Assembly (NCBI GenBank): GCA_964016885.1
Contig: OZ024740.1
Location: 229,958,001 to 230,022,000, forward strand
Length of the DNA: 64,000 bases
Direction of reading: 5' to 3'
DNA from: Eledone cirrhosa
Taxonomy: Eukaryota
In this document: positions 446 to 54,209 of the stretch, piece by piece
Numbering within the stretch: the stretch's first letter is position 1
Layout of the letters: the number at the start of each line of letters is the position of its first letter
Translations under genes and position numbers: made by a program
Notes under the pieces: generated by a model
Told to the model about the DNA's origin: nothing
The model's database searches: none
Seen by the model: the letters and a program-made list of their open reading frames with translations, nothing else

Positions 446-803
446 CCCCTTGCATTGAACCACAAAGTTACTAAGACAAAACCTATATATTTGCTAGCAT
501 AGGTATGCATCTGTATATATATGTTGGTAGATATACTAATTCTTTATATTTATATGTATGTATTTTTGCGTGTGTATATGTGTTATATAATATATAGATT
601 TTTAATAATATAGTCTTAATAATAATATATAGATTTCTTAATATATAGATCCCAATTTTTAATGTATTGATCTCAATATTTAACTGATTAACTAAACATT
701 TAATCATATTTAAACAATGGTTAAATGTTTCATATTTTCCAACAGTAATGGTTGCATTCTTAAAGGGTATGTCAATATTTATTTATAAAACTGCTCTATA
801 TTA

Positions 804-868
804 TATTTTATCTGATGAAAGCACACCATAATTTAACTTGGTGTCCTTGAAATATGTATAATGAAATA
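804..868 (+). ncRNA. Type I hammerhead ribozyme in PLE pLTR (5' copy)
   Basis: tattttat-CTGATGA-aagcacacca..tggtgtcctt-GAAA-tatgta-TA-atgaaata; stems I and II pair. Confidence 0.8.
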
Positions 869-1046
869 AATATGGTTTTATAAATATAGTTTCCATTTGT
901 TAATATCGTATTTTTACTCCAATTATTTGTTGAGTGCTTTATATCAGTTATAAAAATATTTGCTTGTTGTATCCCAACAATTTAAATAGAACTTTTACAT
1001 ATATTCTGCTCCTGTATTGTCGAGCACTTTATATTATAACTGAAAA

Positions 1047-3256
1047 ATGGAATTATTTAAGATCTCTTCTTCTCTAAAGGACATACCTTTACCTAGGAAT
1101 AAAGATTTTATTAAACAATTAATAGAAAAATCAGACTCTTTTATGAGAAGAATCAGGTGGCGTGCTTTCCACTTCGATAAATCTAATCTAAATGAAAATG
1201 TTTTCCAATCTGGATAAAATCTTCAAATCTAAAAAAAAATCCACCCCCCAACAAACTACTAATGGAATTTGAAAATGAAATCATATCTATCATCCAAAGC
1301 ATCAAATTCAAAAACAACTTCAAAGGCCAGGATTACTTAAGAAATATTAAAAATAATATTGAAAACTTAGAGAAAACGGAGAAAATTCTAGTCAAATCTG
1401 ACAAAACCAGTAATCTTTACGGAATACAAAAGGACATTTATAACGATCTTATATTAAAGGAATTAAGGAAGAAATACAAAGTAGCAAATAATGACGACCT
1501 TGAAAAATTGAATACAGATGCCTCTTATATAATGCATGAACTAGGCATTGAAAATAAGACACAACCCTTTATGCCAAGGAAACCTAAGATTAATATGAAG
1601 GATCACAAAAGGAACTTTGTAACTGATATACCAGTCAGATTAATTGCACCATCTAAATCGGACCTTGGCAGACTTAGCAAAAATATTTTAGACAGAATAA
1701 TACCACAAATTAAGAATTTATCTTATTTAAAATTATGGAAAGGAACTAGTGAAGTTATCGATTGGTTTAAGGAAATTAAATATAACTATAATAATAAGTT
1801 TATTCAGTTGGATATTGCTAACTATTACTATCTATCACTCCTAATCTACTGAATAAAGCACTAACTTACGCATTTAAACATACAGACTTAACTAGCAATG
1901 AAATGCACATTATATTATCGGCACGCAAAACATTATTAGAATTTAATAACCAACTCTGGACTAGGGCAGATAGAAATAATAACTTCGATATAACTATGGG
2001 ATCATCCGATTCCGCTCAGGTAACGGATCTTGTGGGCCTCTTTATAAATAACTCTCTACATAGGAAAATACCTGAGATAACCGGAGGTTTATATCGTGAC
2101 GACATGCTTTTACTTATAGAAAATAATAACTGTGAACTAAATAGAAAAAGAAAACAAATTATACAATTTTTTAATTACCTTAATCTAAAAGTAGAAATAG
2201 AGAATAACCATAAAATAGTTAACTTTCTAGATGTAACACTAAACCTTAACACATGTCTTCATTATCCATTTCACAAACTAAATGAGAACTTAAACTACGT
2301 CAATTTTAACTTTAATCACCCCAGATCCGTTAAAAATACTATAGTGAACTCTGTACAGGAACGAATTTCGAGAATTTCAGCTAATAAGAATATATTTGAT
2401 GAAAAAGCACATTATTACAACGAAGCGTTAGGTAGAGCTGGGTATAGAAATAAAATTAAATACATTGATAATAATAATATAACAACTAACCATAATCGTA
2501 ACAATTTTAACTATTTTAACAATGTTAACAACTATAATAGAAAACCTTACAATAATTCCGAAAACAAAAAAAAGAAATAGAACTAGGAACATATTATGGT
2601 TCGCTCCTCCTTTCTCATTAAATATTAAAACCCCTATTGCTAAACTATTTTTTAAAGCTCTTGACAAATGCTTCCCTAGAACACATATATTATTCAATCT
2701 TTAATAGACATACTATAAAATTAACTTATTCTTCCACCAAAAACTTAGCGCAAAATATTAATAGAATTAATAATAGAAATTTAAAACCTAACCAAAATAC
2801 CACTAATAACCCAAGCAATATCCAATTTGATAAATGTAACTGTAGAAATAAATCTAACTGTCCGTTAAATAACAATTGCTTAGCTAAAAATATAGTATAT
2901 AATTGTAATGTAAAAACTAATTTAAATTCATTTAATTATGTGGGATCCACTTCCACAGATTTAAATCCCGCTTCAATAATCATAAAAATTCTTTTACAGA
3001 TCCAAACAAAAAATCTTCAACTTCTCTATCTAGCTTATTATGGGACGTCAAACTAAAGAACATTGAATATTCGTTGATTTGGAATATTATTTCAAAAGCT
3101 ACTCCTTTTAACTCCCCTTCAGAAAATTGTGATCTTTGTATAGAGGAAATATTCTTTATATTAAAGAGCAAAAATTCCCTGAACCTAAGGAACAATTTAT
3201 TCAGTTGCTGTAGACATAGATTGAACTCAACGTTTAAATATAAATTTAAAATGTAA
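1047..3256 (+). pseudogene. Frameshifted PLE RT/GIY-YIG endonuclease ORF (Naiad-like)
   Basis: MELFKISSSLKDIPLP...RRIRWRAFHF start; KSDKT, KDHK..F, RLIAPSKSDLG, FDITMGSSDSAQV, LYRDD, FLDVTLNL; CNCRNKSNCPLNNNC; IVY..YVG; CDLC..E..LN.R...CCRH. Several frameshifts and stops. Confidence 0.92.
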
Positions 3257-3760
3257 TATATAATTAATTAATTAATTCTATTAATATATTGAACCTGTCG
3301 ATAAATCATTAGATTCCTTCATTTTTTTTACTGCTTATACACTCAAGTAAAAAAAACTTTTCTTCCTAAATATAAATAAATATAATAAACTCTTCTAGAG
3401 AAATATACTGAAAGTTCTTAAAAGGGGAAAATATTTTTTGATAGTTTCTCCTATTTTCGAAAGTTTATCTTTATACGTAGAAAATGTTTATACTAAATTT
3501 ATTAAACATATTATTATTTTGAAATTATAACTTGAAATATTCTATAATATTTTTAAAGTTATATTGTTTTAAAGTTATATTGCTTATAATTATATTTCCA
3601 AATCGTAATATAATTCTTTTGTATTTTATGTACTTCAATTATACTATGTACTGTATTTATATATACTTCTCTCTATATATATATGTGTGTGTGTGTATTG
3701 ATATACATGTACATATGGTTTATGCGTTGTACATATGTTTTATGCGTGTATGTCTATCTG

Positions 3761-3800
<40 letters not shown>

Positions 3801-4763
3801 ATGCATATCTACCTATTTGTGTGGGCACATATATGTATCTATATGTGGGAATTGTGTATGTATATATATGTGTATATGCATACAATTCGATTGCATTTAT
3901 TTATAGGGATTATCCCAAGGTTCGTGACAAATAAACATATAATAACAGTCATAAATACATAACGGGTAATCATAAAACTTATATAAAAAAATTTGTTTAA
4001 TAACATAAAGTGTGTATAACATAAAATTTCCTTTAATATCTTAACAATTGTAACATTGATATAACTAAATAACGTGATTTTCCTTCACGCTGCTTTGATA
4101 TTACATTGAAATGATTTTCTCTGATTTTATAAGATTCCTATATCTTAAATTAAAAAATCCTTTATATTTTGTATGTATATATTATATACGTAGTTAGATA
4201 TGTATATATATTTTTATACGTGTGTATATATATTTATATGTATGTATTTTTGCGTGTGTATATGTGTTATATAATATGTAGATTTTTAATAATATAGTCT
4301 TAATAATAATATATAGATTTCTTAATATATAGATCCCAATTTTTAATGTATTGATCTCAATATTTAACTGATTAAATAAACATTTAATCATATTTAAACA
4401 AGGGTTAAATTTTTCATATTATATATGTATATTCCATTCATGATTATTAACATTTCTAATTTTATTTATTCATTTCATCTCAAATGTTAAGATAACTCAA
4501 CAAGATATGACTTAGAGTTTTCGCTCTCTCTCCTTTCTCTTTCTTTCTCCTCTCCCTCTCTCTTTTTTTTCTCTCTGTTGTTCTGCTCTCTCTCTCTCTC
4601 TTTCTCTTTCTCCGTAACCCAACGGCTTATTTAAAAATATCCAATACTAACTTACCTAATAATATAATTAAAGATATAACTCCACTATCCGGGAGCTTCC
4701 AACAGTAATGGTTGCATTCTTTAAGGGTATGTCAATATTTATTTATAAAACTGCTCTATATTA

Positions 4764-4828
4764 TATTTTATCTGATGAAAGCACACCATAATTTAACTTG
4801 GTGTCCTTGAAATATGTATAATGAAATA
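4764..4828 (+). ncRNA. Type I hammerhead ribozyme in PLE pLTR (3' copy)
   Basis: Identical to 804-868, offset 3960 bp. Confidence 0.8.
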
Positions 4829-4867
4829 AATATGGTTTTATAAATATAGTTTCCATTTGTTAATATC

Positions 4868-5289
<422 letters not shown>

Positions 5290-7335
5290 GTTGTTATATA
5301 GTAAGGTGCATTATTGGATGTGTTATATGGTCCAATAAATTTATGTTAGCAACATTATGTTCTCCACGCTTTTGTATATCTCCAATTCCATTCAAGGGAA
5401 CAGCTAGATGATGTAAAACGGAGTATAAGTATCAAAATGAAAATCCGAAGGCAAGGTAAAATTCCAATCATTTAATCACGACACGTTTCAATAAGAGATA
5501 GATCGATTGTGAAGCCATGATCGATTATCACTGATCTAATCAGGTGAAAATGAATTGTCTTCAAATTCTTGATATGAGGGAGAAAAATAACGATGTTCTC
5601 TCACAGAATTCCTTCCCTCATATGAAGACACCCCAGTCAGAGACACGGCGACGGCTATTAACTTCAGTTGAGGTCATAAAAGTTGTCAGATCTCTATTGC
5701 TGCAAAAGACGCTGGACATCAATCAAATCTGTAGGGATATAGTCGGTCACAGTTAATGTGAGTGGGTACACACACACTCCACACCCACATACACCGGCTC
5801 GAGGTCAAAGAAAAAAATATATACATATACACACATCAACACAGTATCAAACCTCTAGAATTATAGAAGGTCACAGTTAGTGTGGGTGAGTACACACACA
5901 CTCTCAGACATATAAGAATGTACCAACACAACACCGAAAGTTAGTTCACAAAACAACAGATACTATATTGGTCAAATCTCAATTTGACGATGTAAATTGG
6001 AAATATTGGGTTAACCAACGCCCCCCCCCCCCCCCCACACACACACACAAGCAAGTAAGTTCAGTTCAATGTTCTGCTATACGTGTATAGATTGAATTGT
6101 AACATCCATATCTGCAAGTGTATGTTATGGTATATACACATCCGAATCGTCCAAAAAAGGGTATGTCCGAGTATATACACATCCATGTGAAGAGCAAGCA
6201 ATCAGCTCATATCGAACTCAGTATGTACCGCTGTCCCATTGAGAATCCGAGTCACGAAATTCGTGCGTGCCAGCAACCGCAATGTAGGCCAGCAAGGGGT
6301 TCCGTGTAGGGTTGGGTATTGGGTAAATGCGTCAGTAAGTGCGATTTCCCGTCATATGGGCCAATGAGCTTTTAAGATAATTGTTTGAGTGGTGGAGGTG
6401 TGTTATCCAACACAGAAGGTGAAGTAAAAAAACACAGGATAGTAAAATCCAGAGGATGTGTGTAGGCCCATTAATGGTGTGTAAGTATTATTGTTCAATC
6501 CGTAACAGTGAATCCTCCATAGTTAGATGATCACGGATCAAAACCTAGTGTAGTGTTCAGTCGGTAGGAACGTGACAGTCGTAATTGTGGGAGCTCAATG
6601 TCTAAAGGAAACGGGTACTGTGTGTAGAGTTATGTATAGAGAGCGTAATCGGTCCTAACTAAGTGTGTAATACGACTAGCTATATCCCAACTGAGAGAAC
6701 TGAATGGTTAGGGTATCTTAAAGTAAATGTAGTTGCGCGTAATCGGTCATGCCTGAGTGTGCAATCAATTACTAACCAGGTATTCTAAGTGTGTAATCAA
6801 TCTAACTATTTACTAGCTAGGTATTCTAAAAAAGTGCACTCAGCTTTGAGAACTCCGTGGAAACAGGCCGAGTACCGTTTGTAAGTGCGCAAACGGTCTT
6901 AGCCGTCTAACTACCTGAGTGTGTGACTGTCTCTTTATTGAGAGGACTCTATGGCTAAAGTAGAGAGGGAGGAGTTAGTGGTAGGTTACCTTCCAAAAAT
7001 CCTGCGGAAGGTTTTCGAGGTTCTATGTTGGCAGTTGCTGAAAAAATCTGCTCTCCTATTAATTAATAGGGGTCCGCCTCTAACAATATTAAAGGGTTCA
7101 GCTATACATAAATTGCAGACGCCAGTGCTGCCGTTATAAGGTTGGGCTGAGCAAAATATGGACCAGGATAAGGAGTGCTCTATATGCTGATGTTTAAGCT
7201 TCCAGACTAATTCACAAAGTGCAGTGCTATTTTTTTTTCTCCCTCATATCAAGAATTTGAAGACAATTCATTTTCACCTGATGAGATCAGTGATAATCGA
7301 TCATGGCTTCACAATCGATCTATCCCTTATTGAAA
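5290..7335 (-). mobile_element. ~2-kb apparently non-coding element with inverted HHR-bearing arms
   Basis: ~5481-5567 is the reverse complement of ~7230-7335. HHR: tcac-CTGAT(G/T)A-long stem II-GAAA-cgtg-TC-gtga. No credible ORF inside. Confidence 0.7.
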
Positions 7336-7577
7336 CATACGTACATATATATATGTGTGCATGTATGTATATATATATACATACTACTGTACGTCTGTAT
7401 ACATATATGTATGTACGTGTCGTACTAAGAGTGGGAAATGAAATTTCGTTTAATTTTTTCCGTTTATCCTTTTCGGTGCACCCGGCCGATTAACCCACTC
7501 GATATGCAAATTGGGCTACTCAGCCGTTAATATGCATAAGGTAAGTATATACGTTCAACAATCTGGCAGGAAGGTAT

Positions 7578-7620
7578 ACGTTGCTGACGATAGCTAATAA
7601 GCTTGAAATTAGTACAGCGT
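7578..7620 (+). ncRNA. Minimal type I hammerhead ribozyme (family A unit 1)
   Basis: acgttg-CTGACGA-t-agct-aata-agct-t-GAAA-ttag-TA-cagcgt. Confidence 0.85.
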
Positions 7621-7996
7621 TCCTTTGTCAGTGTGGAACAAACGAGAAACGATGGTTGCTAGACACTACGGCTTAATACGGATGTTTGTTTACAAACACA
7701 CCGAGCATTATAATAAATGTTCGGTGAATCCATACGTACATATATATATGTGTGCATGTATGTATATATATATACATACTACTGTACGTCTGTATACATA
7801 TATGTATGTACGCGTACATACTTATATTTAAGTAACAGCCGTACTAAGAGTGGGAAATGAAATTTCGTTTCATTTTTTCCGTTTATCCTTTTCGGTGCAC
7901 CCGGCCGATTAACCCACTCGATATGCAAATTGGACTACTCAGCCGTTAATATGCATAAGGTAAGTATATACGTTCAACAATCTGGCAGGAAGGTAT

Positions 7997-8039
7997 ACGT
8001 TGCTGACGATAGCTAATAAGCTTGAAACTAGTACAGTGT
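7997..8039 (+). ncRNA. Minimal type I hammerhead ribozyme (family A unit 2)
   Basis: Same fold, palindromic stem III ACTAGT. Confidence 0.88.
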
Positions 8040-8417
8040 TCCTTTGTCAGTGTTGAACAAACGAGAAACGATGGTTGCTAGACACCACGGCTTAATACGG
8101 GATGTTTGTTTACAAACACACCGAGCATTACATAAATGTTCGGTGAATCCATACGTACATATATATATATGTGTGCATGTATGTATATATATATACATAC
8201 TACTGTACGTCTGTATACATATATGTATGTACGTGTACATACTTATATTTAAGTAACAGCCGTACTAAGAGTGAGAAATGAAATTTCGTTTCATTTTTTC
8301 CGTTTATCCTTTTCGGTGCACCCGGCCGATTAACCCACTCGATATGCAAATTGGACTACTCAGCCGTTAATATGCATAAGGTAAGTATATACGTTCAACA
8401 ATCTGGCAGGAAGGTAT

Positions 8418-8460
8418 ACGTTGCTGACGATAGCTAATAAGCTTGAAACTAGTACAGTGT
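8418..8460 (+). ncRNA. Minimal type I hammerhead ribozyme (family A unit 3)
   Basis: Same as unit 2. Confidence 0.88.
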
Positions 8461-8722
8461 TCCTTTGTCAGTGTTGAACAAACGAGAAACGATGGTTGCT
8501 AGACACTACGGCTTAATACGGGATGTTTGTTTACAAACACACCGAGCATTACATAAATGTTCGGTGAATCCATACGTACATATATATATATGTGTGCATG
8601 TATGTATATATATATACATACTACTGTACGTCTGTATACATATATGTATGTACGTGTACATACTTATATTTAAGTAACAGCCGTACTAAGAGTGAGAAAT
8701 GAAATTTCGTTTCATTTTTTCC

Positions 8723-8780
<58 letters not shown>

Positions 8781-8786
<6 letters not shown>

Positions 8787-9360
8787 GGAAAAAAATGAAA
8801 CGAAATTTCATTTCCCACTCTTAGTACGGCTGTTACTTAAATATAAGTATGTACACATACATACATATATGTATACAGACATACAGTAGTATGTATATAT
8901 ATATACATACATGCACACATATATATATGTACGTACGGATTTACCGAACATTTATTATAATGCTCGGTTTGTTTGTAAACAAACATCCCGAGTTAAGCCG
9001 TAGTGTCTAGCAACCATCGTTTCTCGTTTGTTCAACACTGACAAAGGAACGATGTACTAGTTTCAAGCTTATTAGCTAACGTCAGCACCGTATACCTTCC
9101 TGCCAGATGATTGAACGTCTGAAAGTATTTACTTTCCTTATGCATATTAACGGCTGAGCAGCCTAATTTGCATATCGAGTGAGTTAATCGGCCGGGCGCA
9201 CCGAAAACGATAAATGGAAAAAATGGAAAAAATGCACACATATATATATGTACGTACATATCTATATGTATGCATGTAAATATATATATACATACTACTG
9301 TATGTCTGTCTGTATACATATATGTATACATATATACATACTTATATGTATACATACTTA
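8781..9360 (-). mobile_element. Inverted, diverged family A copy (HHR 9049-9091)
   Basis: Reverse complement of the unit; stem I acggtg/catcgt; core reads CTGACGT. Confidence 0.85.
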
Positions 9361-9364
9361 TATG

Positions 9365-10310
<946 letters not shown>

Positions 10311-17018: not shown

Positions 17019-18627
<1,609 letters not shown>

Positions 18628-19743: not shown

Positions 19744-20779
19744 ACGGAGAAAAAGACGATTATTAGGAAGAAAAATATGTTTTTTTCCTTTTTATTTTTG
19801 TCTTTTTTCTGGGTTAGAAAATGTTTAAAACAAAATATTTTACTTTGTGTGAAGTGTTGAGGTATTAGTTAATTTATTTATTAATTAACAATGGCATTTA
19901 TTTATTTATTTATATATTTAATAATTGTCTATTACCGGTTTCAGCATTTTATGCATTATCAAAAGGGGGGAATATGTATTGGTGTAAAATGGTGATGTTG
20001 AACATGTTAAGGAAATGGTGAAGAAAGAATAATGTTATTTATTGAACTAAAAAGAAAAAAGAAAAAAAAAGGGGGTAATGTGGAACATGATAAGGTAATG
20101 GGAAATAAAAAATAATATTATTTACAGGCATAGTTCTTGAAGATAAGCAGTTCAAGATGTGTTATTATGGCAAGAGTGCTTAGTTGATCCATGATGGAGG
20201 TAAATGGTAGTCCGGGGTTTGATATGATTTCCATTTTTACAGAGTTAATATGCAGGGGGAGGTAATTCAGGGTGGTCAGGTAGATGAGAGAGAGAAGTGA
20301 GAGAGGGTATATCATTTATATAAGAAAAAGGATTAGGTAGGGTGTTAGGGAGGTAACTCTTTAGAGAAACAGGGATTTGGTTTTGGTTCATTGTTCGTTC
20401 CAGTTTTAGTTTAGTCCGAAGTTTAGTGCATTAAGTAGAGGTTGGAATTTGTTAATGAAGTACGTTTCCTTATTGGTACGATGGATGAAAGAAGTTTGTA
20501 AATGGGGAAAATTTTAAAGTTCACACCCTATAACCACGTCCATCAAATCTACACACCCTACAACAACAACAGCAGGGCTCAATACATCCACACAATACAA
20601 CATAACTTCAACAACCACCACAGCTGCACACCCTCTAACAACAACCGCAGGGGGCCAATACAACCATAAGAGACATCCAAACTTCAACAACCACCACAAC
20701 TTCCGTAGTCATTTTTTAGACACAGCACACAGACACAGGGTAACGAGATAACACAAAACACACAGGAGACACAAAATGC

Positions 20780-23048
20780 AATAAAAATCGTTAATTTAAT
20801 CTCTAAAGAATTAACAACAGACCAAATCAACATACTCTCCAAATGTCTAAAATTTACACCAACTACCCAACGACCAAACTACCCCGAAATGGAGGAAGAT
20901 ATTGCAGAATTCTGTAGTAAACTAAGACTCAGCGAGCAACTACACAACAAATACAATGAGGATGACTCAATAGCCAGAAATAGAAGCAACTACACCCCAC
21001 CAAAAGGCAAGAACAAATTCCTCGATCAATTCTGCGAACACATTACTAATTACCCATAACACCACCTGCACAGACATAAACAAAAACCAAACCTAAGCAA
21101 AAAAAAATGTAATGGTCTTAACAGTCTAAAGAACGACAAAACCCTAACAATCAAAGAGGCAGATAAAGGGAGTGCAGTAGTCCTTATGAAGACAGATTAC
21201 TACACAACCCTAGTACTCTCAACTCTAGAAAACCAAACATATTACGAAAAGGCCCAACACTACACACAACAGAAAATAATGAGAAACCTAAAATCCCTAA
21301 CAACCCTTTACAAAGAAGGCCTTACCGACAAGGAATACAACTACATCACCAATTTCAAAAGCAGAACCATCCTTTTCTACGGTATCCCAAAGTCACACAA
21401 AAGCGAAGTAATAGGTAGGGCCTGCAAGCAAGTCACAGACATTTACATCAATATACCCCCTCCTGATGACCTTAAATTAAGACCCATAATAGCAGGTACC
21501 AGATGTGAAACCCACCGCCTAAGCAACTTCCTAGATATTCTGCTTAAACCTTTCCTAAAACACATAAAAAGCTTCACAAGGGACGATCTTGACATGCTCA
21601 ACCACCTCCCAACAACACTCAATAATGAACATACCATACTAGTAACCTTTGATGTCATCAATTTATATTCCAATATCCCACACAACCTAGGTATAGAGGC
21701 AATACAATTCTGGCTTGAAAATTTCCCTAGTGAACTCCCACAGCGCATACCTAAAGAATTTGTGTTGGAGGGACTCAAATTCATCTTGGAAAACAACTTC
21801 TTCGAATTCGATGCCAAATAGTATAGACAGAAATCTGGGACTGCCATGGGCACGAAAGTAGCCCCTCATACGCCAACCTTGTCATGGGATATTTGGAAAC
21901 CACTCTCTACCGCAAAGCTCTAGACAAATACGGCAACCACTTCTACCAACACATAGAAAGAATTGGAAGAGATATCTGGACGACTGCTTCATCCTCTTGC
22001 ATGAAAGTATAGATAGACTGATTGAGTTTAAAACACTTCTAAGTGGACTCAACACAAACTTACAATTCACAATGGATTACAGCCATGAACAACTCCCTTT
22101 CCTCGACATCATCATCAAGAAAACAGACACCAAAATAGAAACAGACATATACTACAAAGCCACAGACTCCAAACAATACCTTCCATTCAACTCGTGCCAC
22201 CCTCGCCATACCAAAATGGCAATTCCTTATAACCTAGCCAGAAGGATCTGCACAATAGTTTCAAATAAATACACTTGCTACACACGACTAGAAGAATTAA
22301 AGAACACACTTATCAGCAGAAACTATCCACCATCCCTAATCAACAATGGATTCCAACGTTCCCTAAACCTCAACATACAGGAACTAAGACACCCCAAACC
22401 CAGGAATGAACCGCAACAGAAAACTCTACCATACATCTCCACACACAACCCCCTCAACAATGAGGCATTTGACACCATCCTCCAGAACATTCCTTTACTA
22501 AAAAGACCCAAGAATGAACAAAATCTTCCAAACACACAACATCATAAAGAGCAAAAGACAACCTAAATCCATAAAAAAACATCCTCACACAAGCCAAAAT
22601 CCAACCAACCCTCACAATTAACCCTACAGTAAAGAAATACGGAAGGCCCAGCTGTGGTATATGCTTAAATCTAATAGAATGTTCAACATTCCATTTTAAA
22701 CAAGGACAACATTTCACAGTTAAACACAACTTTACATGTGCATCTGAAAACCTAATCTATGTTTTGGCCTGCTCAGGTTGTCAAGAGCACTACATAGGAC
22801 AGACAAAAAACAGCCTCTGACAACATATGACCGTCCATAGATCACAAATCAAAATACAGGAATACAGAAAGATTGCGTTTAGTGAATATATCGCCAATTG
22901 TACACCTAACCAACTTCCAAACTTTAAAATTTTCCCCTTTTACAAATTCATAGACAACGCTTCTTTCATCCATCGTACCAATAAGGAAACGTACTTCATT
23001 AATAAATTCCAACCTCTACTTAATGCACTAAACTTCGGACTAAACTAA
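20780..23048 (+). pseudogene. Disrupted PLE RT + Cys-rich linker + GIY-YIG ORF
   Basis: LKFTPT, ADKGSAVV, FYGIPKSHK, LRPII, FDVINLYSNIPH, GTAMG, RYLDD, LPFLD, SCHP, FTC.SENLIY..C..C..YIGQT. Confidence 0.92.
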
Positions 23049-23487
23049 AACTGGAACGAACAATGAACCAAAACCAAATCCCTGTTTCTCTAAAGAGTTA
23101 CCTCCCTAACACCCTACCTAATCCTTTTTCTTATATAAATTGTATACCCTCTCTCACTTCTCTCTCATCTACCTGACCACCCTGAATTACCTCCCCCTGC
23201 ATATTAACTCTCTAAAAAGGGAAATCATATCAAACCCCGGACTACCATTTACCTCCATCATGGATCAACTGAGCACTCTTGCCATAATAACACATCTTGA
23301 ACTGCTTATCTTCAAGAACTATGCCTGTAAATAATATTATTTTTTATTTCCCATTACCTTATTATGTTCCACATTTCCCCCCCCCCCCCCTTTTTTTTCT
23401 TTTCAGTTCAATAAATAACATTATTCTTTCTTCACCATTTCCTTAACATGTTCAACATCACCATTTTACACCAATACATATTCCCCC

Positions 23488-23525
23488 GTTTTTGATAATG
23501 CATAAAATGCTGAAACCGGTAATAG
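23488..23525 (+). ncRNA. U3-A8 hammerhead-like motif in pLTR (mirror copy 19929-19966 minus)
   Basis: TTGATAA-t-gcat-aaa-atgc-t-GAAA-ccgg-TA; stem I is weak. Confidence 0.6.
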
Positions 23526-34420: not shown

Positions 34421-35003
34421 ATCTAGCTCTCTTGCTCACACTCTCCATATATATATATATAAATATATATAGTTCAAAATGACAAACAAACAAACGCAGG
34501 AATCAATGGTACATTTATATATATATGTGTGTGTGTATGTGTGTGTGTGCGCGCGCACGTGTGCGTATGTATGTGCGTTTGTTTGTATATGTGTGTGTTT
34601 GTGTGTGTTAGATTATATTTGTAGTGTTTATAGAATTCTATGAACAAAATCATATTCCCAAATCTTTGTATATAATTTTAGTGTTGTATTTTGTTATTCT
34701 TGGCTTTGTTTTTAGCCAGGGACCATATCTTGAGTAGTTATTCAGGCAATAGTAAGTATACCATCAAGAGTAGACAACTCTGTGTGTTTGATATTGTGTT
34801 TTTAATGGCTATACGTCACAATAAACAATATGCCGTTACTAACGTTACAAAACATTCTGTAATAGCTGTCTGATAAAAAAAAAACCGCACTCAAGTAAAT
34901 AAATATTGATTACCAAATAGTAAACTTTATAAACATTTTAAATCTGAGCAGAACATTCATTAATATCATATAGAATTTAAATTTGATGTAAATCCTCGCA
35001 AAA

Positions 35004-35852
35004 ATGAATAGCAGAATGAAGAAAGATGTAGAAAAATCTTTCACTAACCGAAGCTGTGAGACTGATGTAACAAGAAAATTGCTTTATAACAGTAACTCGT
35101 ATTTCTGTCGTATATGTCTCGAAGTTGGCAAATGTAACAAAAAATTCGTGTCTCCTTGTTATTGCATCGGTTCCGTTGGACAAGTCCATGTAAGATGTTT
35201 GGAACGTTGGCTCGTCTATTCCAATAATCAAAAGTGTGAATTGTGTGGTTTTAAATATATACTTCAGCAACGTTCTGTATCACTTGTGGAATTTATTAGA
35301 AATCCTGGAACATCTGAAGAAAAACAACAATTTAAATGCGATGTATGGTTGATTGTAACACTGTTGTTATTTGCCACACTGTGCCTTTGGAGATTCCTAT
35401 CAAAAGCCAATCAAAGCATTTTAACATTAAATAGTTGTACAATTTGTTTGTTTTTTTTTAGCCTTATAGGTATTATTCGTCGTTTTTGCCGAATTCTAAC
35501 GTTATGGAAACGTAGAAAACGGCAAATTAAAATTACTAGTTTAACAAAAAATAAAAGTATTAATCTTAGAACAAACTCGAAGAAAACTAACCATGAAATT
35601 ATCAATGATTTTCGATCGGAAAATATCGATGATATAAAGAAATTTTCGTTAAAGGGAAATTTAAAGAACGAAAACAAACGACCATACGCATTAAGAAGTC
35701 AAAGCTTTACAAGCAACAATGGAAATTCAATTGAAGTATCAAAATCTACTGAAAGGCTGCTTTCGAATAATCCAGATTTTACCATTTGCACAAGAAGCTC
35801 TCAAAGACTCAAAAGCAATGGGGCTTATCATTCAAATAAATATACAGCATAA
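35004..35852 (+). CDS. Membrane-associated RING-CH (MARCH2/3-like) E3 ubiquitin ligase, single exon
   Basis: Intact 282-aa ORF; CRIC..PCYC.G....H..CL.RW....CELC (C4HC3), then two hydrophobic segments and a basic tail. Confidence 0.88.
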   Translation: MNSRMKKDVEKSFTNRSCETDVTRKLLYNSNSYFCRICLEVGKCNKKFVSPCYCIGSVGQVHVRCLERWLVYSNNQKCELCGFKYILQQRSVSLVEFIRNPGTSEEKQQFKCDVWLIVTLLLFATLCLWRFLSKANQSILTLNSCTICLFFFSLIGIIRRFCRILTLWKRRKRQIKITSLTKNKSINLRTNSKKTNHEIINDFRSENIDDIKKFSLKGNLKNENKRPYALRSQSFTSNNGNSIEVSKSTERLLSNNPDFTICTRSSQRLKSNGAYHSNKYTA

Positions 35853-40868: not shown

Positions 40869-40919
<51 letters not shown>

Positions 40920-40922
<3 letters not shown>

Positions 40923-41127
40923 TATTAGGCTGCTCAGCCGTTAATATGCATAAGGAAAGTATATACTTTCAAACGTTTAATCGACTGACAGGAAGCTAAT
41001 AAGCTAGAAACTAGTTCATCGAACAAAAGGGCAACGATGATTGCCGAACACTCTACGGCTTAATTCGGGCTGTTTGTTTACAAACAGACCGAACATTATA
41101 ATAAACGTTCGGTAAACCCATACGTAC

Positions 41128-41130
<3 letters not shown>
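40920..41130 (+). mobile_element. Deleted family A fragment
   Basis: Homologous to family A; HHR 5' core deleted. Confidence 0.8.
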
Positions 41131-41168
<38 letters not shown>

Positions 41169-53585: not shown

Positions 53586-53592
<7 letters not shown>

Positions 53593-54127
53593 GTGAGGTT
53601 TTTTTTTACAAAATGAAAAATAACCGAGGTGTCCTACACGAGTGGAAGTATAAAGAAAAAGAGATGAAATCGAAAATGCAACTGAAGTCTTATTTTTTTT
53701 TTAAATATATATATTTATTTGGTTCCTTTACCGGGTTCCCAGTTCTTCTGCTTTTCAAAAGGTGAGTTGAGATGGAGGTCTGTGGTTTTTCTCACATATA
53801 TATATACGTACATACATATATGTATACAGACGTACAGTAGTATGTATATATATATATATACATACATGTACACACATATATATGTACGTATCGGTTTACC
53901 GAACATTTATTATAATGATCGGTTTGTTTGTAAACATTATAATAAATGTAAATATTATAATAAATGTTCGGTAAACCGATACGTACATATATATATATGT
54001 GTACATGCATGTATATATATACATACTACTGTATGTCTGTATACATATATGCATGTACGTATACATACTTATATTTAAGTAACAGCCGTACTAAGAGTGA
54101 GAAATGAAATTTCGTTTCATTTTTTCC

Positions 54128-54128
<1 letters not shown>
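53586..54128. mobile_element. Chimera: fragment of the 9.5-kb family joined to a family A fold-back
   Basis: 53586-53795 matches 9430-9638; ~53800-53940 and 53955-54128 are inverted family A pieces. Confidence 0.8.

Positions 54129-54209
<81 letters not shown>

Follow-up and report, generated by a model that had tools for sequence, protein, structure and literature searches.

The genome of Eledone cirrhosa (3.0 Gb, rich in microsatellites and containing Penelope-like elements, PLEs) harbors a family of non-coding tandem repeats that, by every sequence test applied, is a new family of metazoan non-LTR retrozymes. This family probably spreads as a (TA)n-targeting PLE reverse transcriptase (RT) re-copies one RNA monomer, most plausibly a circle. 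Unless stated otherwise, coordinates refer to the window, that is, the whole stretch of 64,000 nucleotides that was analysed (contig OZ024740.1).

The segment 7336-9360 had been described in an earlier note as a tandem of retrozyme-like units. The retrozyme identity was borne out, the units being tandem and non-coding with one type I hammerhead ribozyme (HHR) each; the segment itself, however, resolved into two insertions of different subfamilies, disposed tail to tail and separated by a (TA)n target tract (8726..8783). Insertion 1 is a retrozyme array of subfamily A (7336..8728, plus strand) and includes a tandem with a period of 421 bp and 3.1 copies (7421-8728). With monomer position 1 set at the first base past the predicted cut (window 8034), it runs through positions 117-421, then two full laps, then 1-274; it is truncated at the 5' end, and its 3' end is a fixed site, 274, running into (TA)n. 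CTGACGA cores begin on the plus strand at 7584, 8003 and 8424, with the spacing of 419 and 421 bp reported previously, and a 32-nt HHR string has four matches in the window versus none in 100 shuffles. The palindromic stem III ACTAGT, formerly ascribed to all three plus-strand copies, is found in two of them. HHR 1 (7578..7620, core at 7584, predicted cut after 7614) reads ATTAGT in helix III. HHR 2 (7997..8039, core at 8003, predicted cut after 8033) has the palindrome, an intact core, a helix I of 6 bp and a helix II made of a U-U plus 4 bp. HHR 3 (8418..8460, core at 8424, predicted cut after 8454) is also intact, and only HHR 2 and HHR 3, among the copies in the window, combine an intact core with ACTAGT. 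The single cut-to-cut monomer (8034..8454, plus strand) measures 421 nt and is predicted to be highly self-paired; its GC content of 37% lies below the 50% criterion for non-LTR retrozymes. A 56-nt "tail" (8673..8728, plus strand) lies between the fixed ends of the family at monomer 218 and 274, borders that would correspond to reverse-transcription start sites.

Insertion 2 belongs to subfamily B. Its long arm (8781..9228, minus strand) has its 3' end at 274, facing insertion 1, and bears HHR 4 (9049..9091, minus strand), whose core is altered to CTGACGT and whose stem I reads acggtg/catcgt; a short inverted arm (about 9251..9350, plus strand) ends at 218 and then enters (TA)n. The laps of insertion 1 differ unequally: laps 1 and 2 by 6 substitutions and 3 indels, laps 2 and 3 by 2 substitutions, and laps 2 and 3 have in common changes that are absent from lap 1. 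As this inequality suggests, the array was probably lengthened by a later one-unit duplication at the DNA level and not by rolling copying alone, and HHR 3 was likely gained through such a duplication.

All five family loci previously counted in the window were recovered (7336-8728, 8781-9360, 17109-17803, 40916-41166 and 53799-54133), though the HHR core is altered, deleted or missing in the later ones. Two are plus-strand copies of subfamily D: one (17109..17803) extends over 1.6 laps up to its end at 274, within (TA)n, and has a private core change, CTGTTGA, and the other (40916..41166) shows internal deletions and has its HHR core deleted. The last (53799..54133) is a short head-to-head insertion without HHR, made of a minus arm (53799-53936) and a plus arm (53960-54133) ending at 274. 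The CTGTTGA variant prompted the idea of an amplified, catalytically dead subfamily, which was discarded since 30 of 36 D copies read CTGATGA.

An Rfam scan gave no match at the gathering threshold; therefore, the HHR assignment stands on motif, covariation and conservation. Because many loci had been picked by the HHR string, conservation within one subfamily was set aside and lineages were compared instead. Units measure 421-510 nt across lineages, and the natural monomers compared, of 421-508 nt, are 60-95% alike. In seven of them, the core and helix III are invariant at 15 of 15 positions versus 166 of 378 elsewhere (Fisher p = 6e-6, a value that is indicative only, the lineages of the seven monomers being related), which disposes of the possibility, raised in the earlier note as a check, that the HHR is no more conserved than the rest of the unit. 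Six of 13 helix pairs have changed on both sides (3 of 6 in helix I, 3 of 5 in helix II), and 93.8% of cells are paired versus at most 46% in slid controls. The two stem I states noted before, acgttg/cagcgt and acggtg/catcgt, do preserve pairing, and a third, acgatg/catcgt, was also present. The elements CUGANGA, GAAA and NUH are all found, changes between lineages being confined to N7, H17, the pair that closes helix II (G-C in lineage E, either U-U or C-A in lineages A-D), the stems and loop 2. ACUAGU does not vary across lineages; GGUAW, located 5' of helix I, and, in loop 2, U-AAYA-A persist as the stems vary. Predicted energies (about +5.4 kcal/mol for helix III in the monomer, -4.8 for the ACUAGU self-duplex) favor the self-duplex, in agreement with the dimer-type helix III proposed earlier.

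The term "minimal" that had been applied to this ribozyme did not hold. As defined in the accessible portion of PMC4209133, the min-HHRs of S. mansoni have a long helix II (7-8 bp) and a short helix I (4-5 bp), and canonical metazoan type I HHRs have a helix I of 6 bp, a helix II of 4 bp and a helix III of 1-2 bp whose loop is palindromic, favoring dimers, and features that include a tertiary contact that joins loop 1 to loop 2. The family motif, with a helix II of 4-5 bp and a helix I of 6 bp prolonged by a long extension, falls outside the former definition; judged from these comparisons, it is a canonical metazoan type I HHR, evidently under purifying selection. We are strongly confident that the family is a retrozyme with a selected HHR.

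Genome-wide, exact motif matches numbered 4,789 for A, 890 for D, 11,570 for C and 9,535 for an E-type pattern (all of lineage E among the first 100 matches listed), more than 25,000 together; these are matches to motifs, not insertions, and the reversed-pattern control gave 0 for each. The lack of a credible ORF was confirmed: when the A monomer is read as a tandem, no frame between stops exceeds 78 aa, and the longest of C measures 118 aa, on the antisense strand. The predicted circular fold has z scores of -5.3 (A), -10.8 (C) and -8.1 (E) relative to 30 shuffles each, values to which the AT hairpin contributes, and the monomer ends are predicted to be paired by the long extension of helix I. 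Satellite-like arrays with array-specific variants occur at C1:51.8 Mb (L113-L115, about 21 kb) and C1:97.0 Mb (L050-L052). An apparently systematic A in the terminal CC(A/G)TTT turned out to be a subfamily allele. Contigs from four runs of unknown kind were discounted, since they bear on neither expression nor ends. In a low-depth contig from a different organism, matches were limited to the HHR region and the tail, and it was not counted as support. No publication on the family, or on the arms and laps of retrozymes, was found in the part of the literature covered (article texts).

Information on how the family moves came from the ends of its insertions. Alignments within the AT tract were filtered out, as were those of less than 80% identity (the limit being 75% for C and 84-88% for E). 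Of 258 chained runs, removal of duplicates and locus-edge runs left 221 distinct runs in 150 loci. Their 3' ends accumulate at 218±5 (70 runs) and 274±5 (93 runs); 61 of the 150 loci had been chosen by a pattern containing the 274 end, while 218 was never selected for. These fixed ends run into TA in 129 of 163 cases (54/70 at 218, 75/93 at 274). The 5' ends of the 221 runs are scattered, and a pile-up at the HHR cut, looked for among the runs, was absent. In loci picked by HHR only, 61 of 93 ends of lineage C coincided exactly with the homologous sites 263/322, and 40 of 41 ends of lineage E fell within 5 nt of 235/304. The tail measures 56-69 nt among lineages and is situated 218-322 nt past the cut. 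Head-to-head pairs (n=72) combine a 218 with a 274 end in 43 instances, two 274 ends in 2 and two 218 ends in none, the other 27 having an eroded or different end; the (TA)n flanks mask any target-site duplications. Together, two fixed 3' ends, (TA)n targets, random 5' ends and mixed-end arms are, as read from the sequence, a Penelope-like signature, and PLE-type priming of the insertions is very likely. The two fixed internal start sites and the head-to-head arms in (TA)n were absent from the earlier note. The family shows the structural attributes of a non-autonomous PLE, a demonstrated autonomous relative excepted.

A broken Hydra-like PLE is present in the window itself (737-4871), with RT and GIY-YIG sequences in frameshifted pieces (1047-3230) and pLTR HHRs at 812 and 4772. 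Pfam searches of the window frames gave no informative hit; RWR, DKT and CNCRNKSNC motifs were recognised by eye, and the element displays the features of the Hydra clade, including a C-terminal GIY-YIG (features tested: RWK-like and DKT motifs, CxCX5C linker, GIY-YIG, pLTR HHR and (TA)n target). A first look at the Hydra-like family gave 39,509 candidates, and 30 loci of one family were tested. The family of the 737-4871 element has two fixed ends (window 906-911 and 1004) and TA targets, the same anatomy as the retrozyme; in these 30 loci, no sequence shared with the retrozyme unit was found. Since the likeness in anatomy comes without a sequence match, the clade of the helper is only inferred; a PLE protein of the Hydra clade is the most likely candidate. 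Chimeric arms with Hydra-like elements (L005, L033, L108, L134 and the 7336 junction) were considered as proof of the helper and rejected, as they mostly reflect nested insertion into TA tracts. At 7336, the retrozyme array is joined inside GAAAC to a second Hydra-like insertion (5290-7336), whose endonuclease end maps near 7080-7200 on the minus strand and whose pLTR is present as inverted copies (5485-5590 and 7231-7336) with an HHR-like motif of long helix II; chimeric copying or a later deletion could account for the junction.

Other repeats were observed in the window. Further HHR motifs (37052/37298 and 41350/41495) form inverted pairs typical of other head-to-head PLE insertions, another TA-flanked repeat family lies beside retrozyme copies (9430-10000, as a head-to-head pair, and 53590-53797), and a broken PLE of another type, with inverted terminal copies, occupies 20000-23500 (RT frames 21060-22566). 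An open frame between (TAA)n tracts (17904-18425), without Pfam hit, presumably resembles the terminal part of an R4-type non-LTR element, with its restriction-like endonuclease. A 286-aa frame (34992-35852) with hydrophobic stretches and a cysteine pattern that we take to be RING-CH-like is possibly a host gene or a retrocopy.

To characterise the template, laps and haplotypes were compared with AT-rich and indel-rich columns masked. The two arms of an insertion agree at 461 of 506 diagnostic columns (91%) versus 57% when shuffled, and adjacent laps differ at 50 of 783 columns in A/B and 9 of 504 in C, whereas laps drawn at random differ at 44% and 40%, respectively. At 15 loci of lineage C, selected as multi-lap, every insertion shows a hairpin and AT-tract haplotype of its own, common to all its laps and to both arms. 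A 468-nt haplotype of lineage E has 69 matches in 7 insertions, with laps nearly all identical; opposite arms contain, for example, 6+12 and 17+7 full laps (up to 24 per insertion). These insertions, the product of a very recent burst, lie at C1:30.83 Mb and C18:30.95 Mb (G000) and at five more places (L311-312, L341-347). A genome-wide search for rare single A>G variants yielded 38 matches in 13 insertions, which are not fully independent because four share one sub-lineage and two another; in all 9 of those with two or more laps over the site, which represent several backgrounds, the variant occupies every covering lap, both arms included. In the older A/B lineages, laps are no closer to each other than to the nearest other locus, so that the lap test relies on the young C and E relatives. 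Rare variants in A/B are mostly private (365 versus 30 shared), and therefore the window locus cannot itself demonstrate rolling copying. The proposal that rolling copying generates the arrays is supported for the young relatives, where one monomer appears to have been re-copied; the window array fits a later DNA duplication better than rolling copying alone. The simplest reading of the sequence patterns is that each insertion was read repeatedly off one monomer. It is likely that the monomer was re-read in cis, and we lean towards a covalent circle as the template; DNA alone cannot separate a ligated circle from a cleaved monomer with paired ends crossed by a precise RT jump.

Growth as DNA left traces of its own. 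ABAB arrays (L078, L112, L230) and a period-4 variant at C2:265 Mb are evidently products of DNA-level growth or of multi-unit templates, and growth of this kind can also homogenise laps inside one arm. As to the mutation spectrum, all-lap variants (n=41) comprise 16 A>G and 11 T>C, and single-lap variants (n=374) 28 A>G and 36 T>C. Lineage E has A>G changes of the HHR strand at positions 338, 342 and 343 (L348-L366), which recur across several haplotype backgrounds and fill whole insertions. RNA editing fixed by reverse transcription might have produced the A>G excess; selection on structure explains the spectrum equally, because T>C is also raised and some hairpin pairs look compensatory. 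The notion that the three A>G changes arose in one editing burst was abandoned, as forms with a single change also exist. More tentatively, and with doubts outweighing our confidence, we suggest that a currently bursting lineage may be copied by rolling-circle TPRT from two Penelope starts on one circle, so that a single event could produce bidirectional arrays as long as 12 kb, in which RNA changes (possibly A-to-I) would become fixed in every lap.

Repeated reading of one monomer has to be weighed against a scheme in which a non-autonomous PLE derivative is copied from long, uncleaved linear tandem transcripts, DNA duplication renews the arrays and the HHR is retained for some other role, such as RNA processing or protein binding. 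In the accessible part of PMC11167929, HHR cleavage is unnecessary for PLE insertion in vitro and uncleaved RNA is the main template; read-through at the cut would fit this scheme equally well, DNA-level expansion is visible in arrays, and a 17-lap arm with the E haplotype exists that could template shorter arms. However, each new mutation would have to reach all source units before copying, and there are numerous different haplotypes, each of which occupies every lap in the two arms. The longest E arm has no longer source among the 69 matches, although the assembly might miss one, and neither of the two large arrays tested is a master, since dispersed copies mostly lack the variants fixed in them (e.g. 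46 of 47 units versus 1 of 162 runs). We consider copying from linear tandem transcripts unlikely.

HHR-cleaved linear monomers could also serve as templates, the RT passing by a precise jump from the 5' end to a 3' end of the same or another molecule, without a covalent circle. Pairing of the monomer ends by the extended helix I, as predicted, would assist such jumps, and one arm, C744 (L345:1265-6306), does switch E haplotype in register inside a 70-nt zone beginning at the HHR cut; this is, however, a single case and a possible assembly chimera, with a zone that, by chance alone, would contain the cut in about 15% of cases, and the switch in L098 lies away from the cut. Mosaics are rare, in-register switches affecting 3 of 90 A/B lap pairs and 0 of 58 C lap pairs. 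Moreover, unforced crossings halted at the cut in 3 of 92 cases versus 4.5% expected and, given no excess of halting, copying does not mainly proceed as a simple run-off on cleaved monomers. Precise jumping thus appears quite improbable. As for an ordinary satellite, spread and homogenised only as DNA and carrying a relic HHR, the large arrays with higher-order periods would suit it; ends fixed on the 3' side and random on the 5' side, arms that pair 218 with 274, TA targeting and an invariant core with covarying stems would not. As the main mode of spread it appears already contradicted by the end statistics, and we give it almost no credence.

The reading that we favor, re-copying of one monomer by a PLE enzyme, would proceed as follows. 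Tandem copies would be transcribed, and two HHRs, pairing through ACUAGU, would excise a monomer of 420-510 nt, as suggested by the selection on the core and by similar HHRs of axolotl. The monomer ends, held by the long helix I extension, would then be ligated or at least juxtaposed. A putative PLE protein would cut (TA)n and prime cDNA from both DNA ends, with one start at 218 and the other at 274 and 2-3 nt of TA microhomology, a step whose footprint is seen in the insertions. Each cDNA would pass the cut without excess stops and extend for a fraction of a lap to up to 17 laps, after which the two 5' ends would be joined head to head, both features having left their footprint. Some arrays, most likely including that of the window, would grow later as DNA, in keeping with the observed patterns.

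Several of these elements have counterparts in known systems. As related in the accessible text of PMC7229834, metazoan non-LTR retrozymes (coral, mussel, axolotl) have units of 150-450 bp, target-site duplications of more than 4 bp when present and no PBS or PPT; they produce linear and circular monomer RNA, the circles having been demonstrated, and the axolotl HHRs cut efficiently as dimers. Like them, the present family is non-coding and low in GC, has a type I HHR in each of its tandem units and comes in thousands of copies; its putative circle is predicted, here from DNA alone, to be self-paired. Its helix III of one pair with a palindromic tetraloop recalls HHR_Amex1, and the U-U mismatch at the base of helix II recalls HHR_Amex2. 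It differs in that its units of about 421-510 nt are at or above that size range and in that circles are known only for the published elements; in addition, fixed internal ends, inverted arms in pairs and a (TA)n target are not described in that portion of the text, which names PLEs only as candidate mobilisers. The Poseidon PLE PAc, in the part of PMC11167929 at hand, cuts AT-rich DNA, extends both strands and starts at two internal sites that define a tail, and a (TA)n bias is recorded for Hydra, Neptune and Naiad elements in the corresponding part of PMC8557442. With the PLEs of these two sources the family shares 5' truncation, an inverted 5'-truncated arm, a two-end tail, (TA)n and an HHR upstream of the starts. 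Unlike them, as far as those descriptions go, it has no ORF, its tail is longer (56-69 nt versus 30-40) and lies 218-322 nt past the cut, its unit repeats in register for many laps, and an autonomous pLTR matching it in sequence was looked for in 30 loci of one Hydra-like family and not found.

A 2026 preprint, in its accessible part, proposes a PLE origin and PLE mobilisation of retrozymes from co-occurrence in Xenopus and pLTR similarity, reports that 8 of 9 Xenopus retrozyme dimers were uncleaved in vitro, discusses local amplification via unequal crossover and states the mobilisation mechanism to be open. That part contains no analysis of insertion ends, arms or lap haplotypes, all three of which are available for the family described here. 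Both in this preprint and in PMC7229834, as far as their accessible texts go, the enzyme that copies animal retrozyme circles, and the circle as template, are a hypothesis only. Circle templating and mobilisation by PLEs have thus already been proposed in print; what is added here is a precise genomic footprint. The family yields base-precise predictions, namely a pair of start sites, TA as the target, pairing of arms, a clade that may supply the helper and a lineage of very young age, and the model is therefore testable in vitro with one RT and one circle. If true, it would provide a route by which kilobase-long, satellite-like arrays may appear in a single step.
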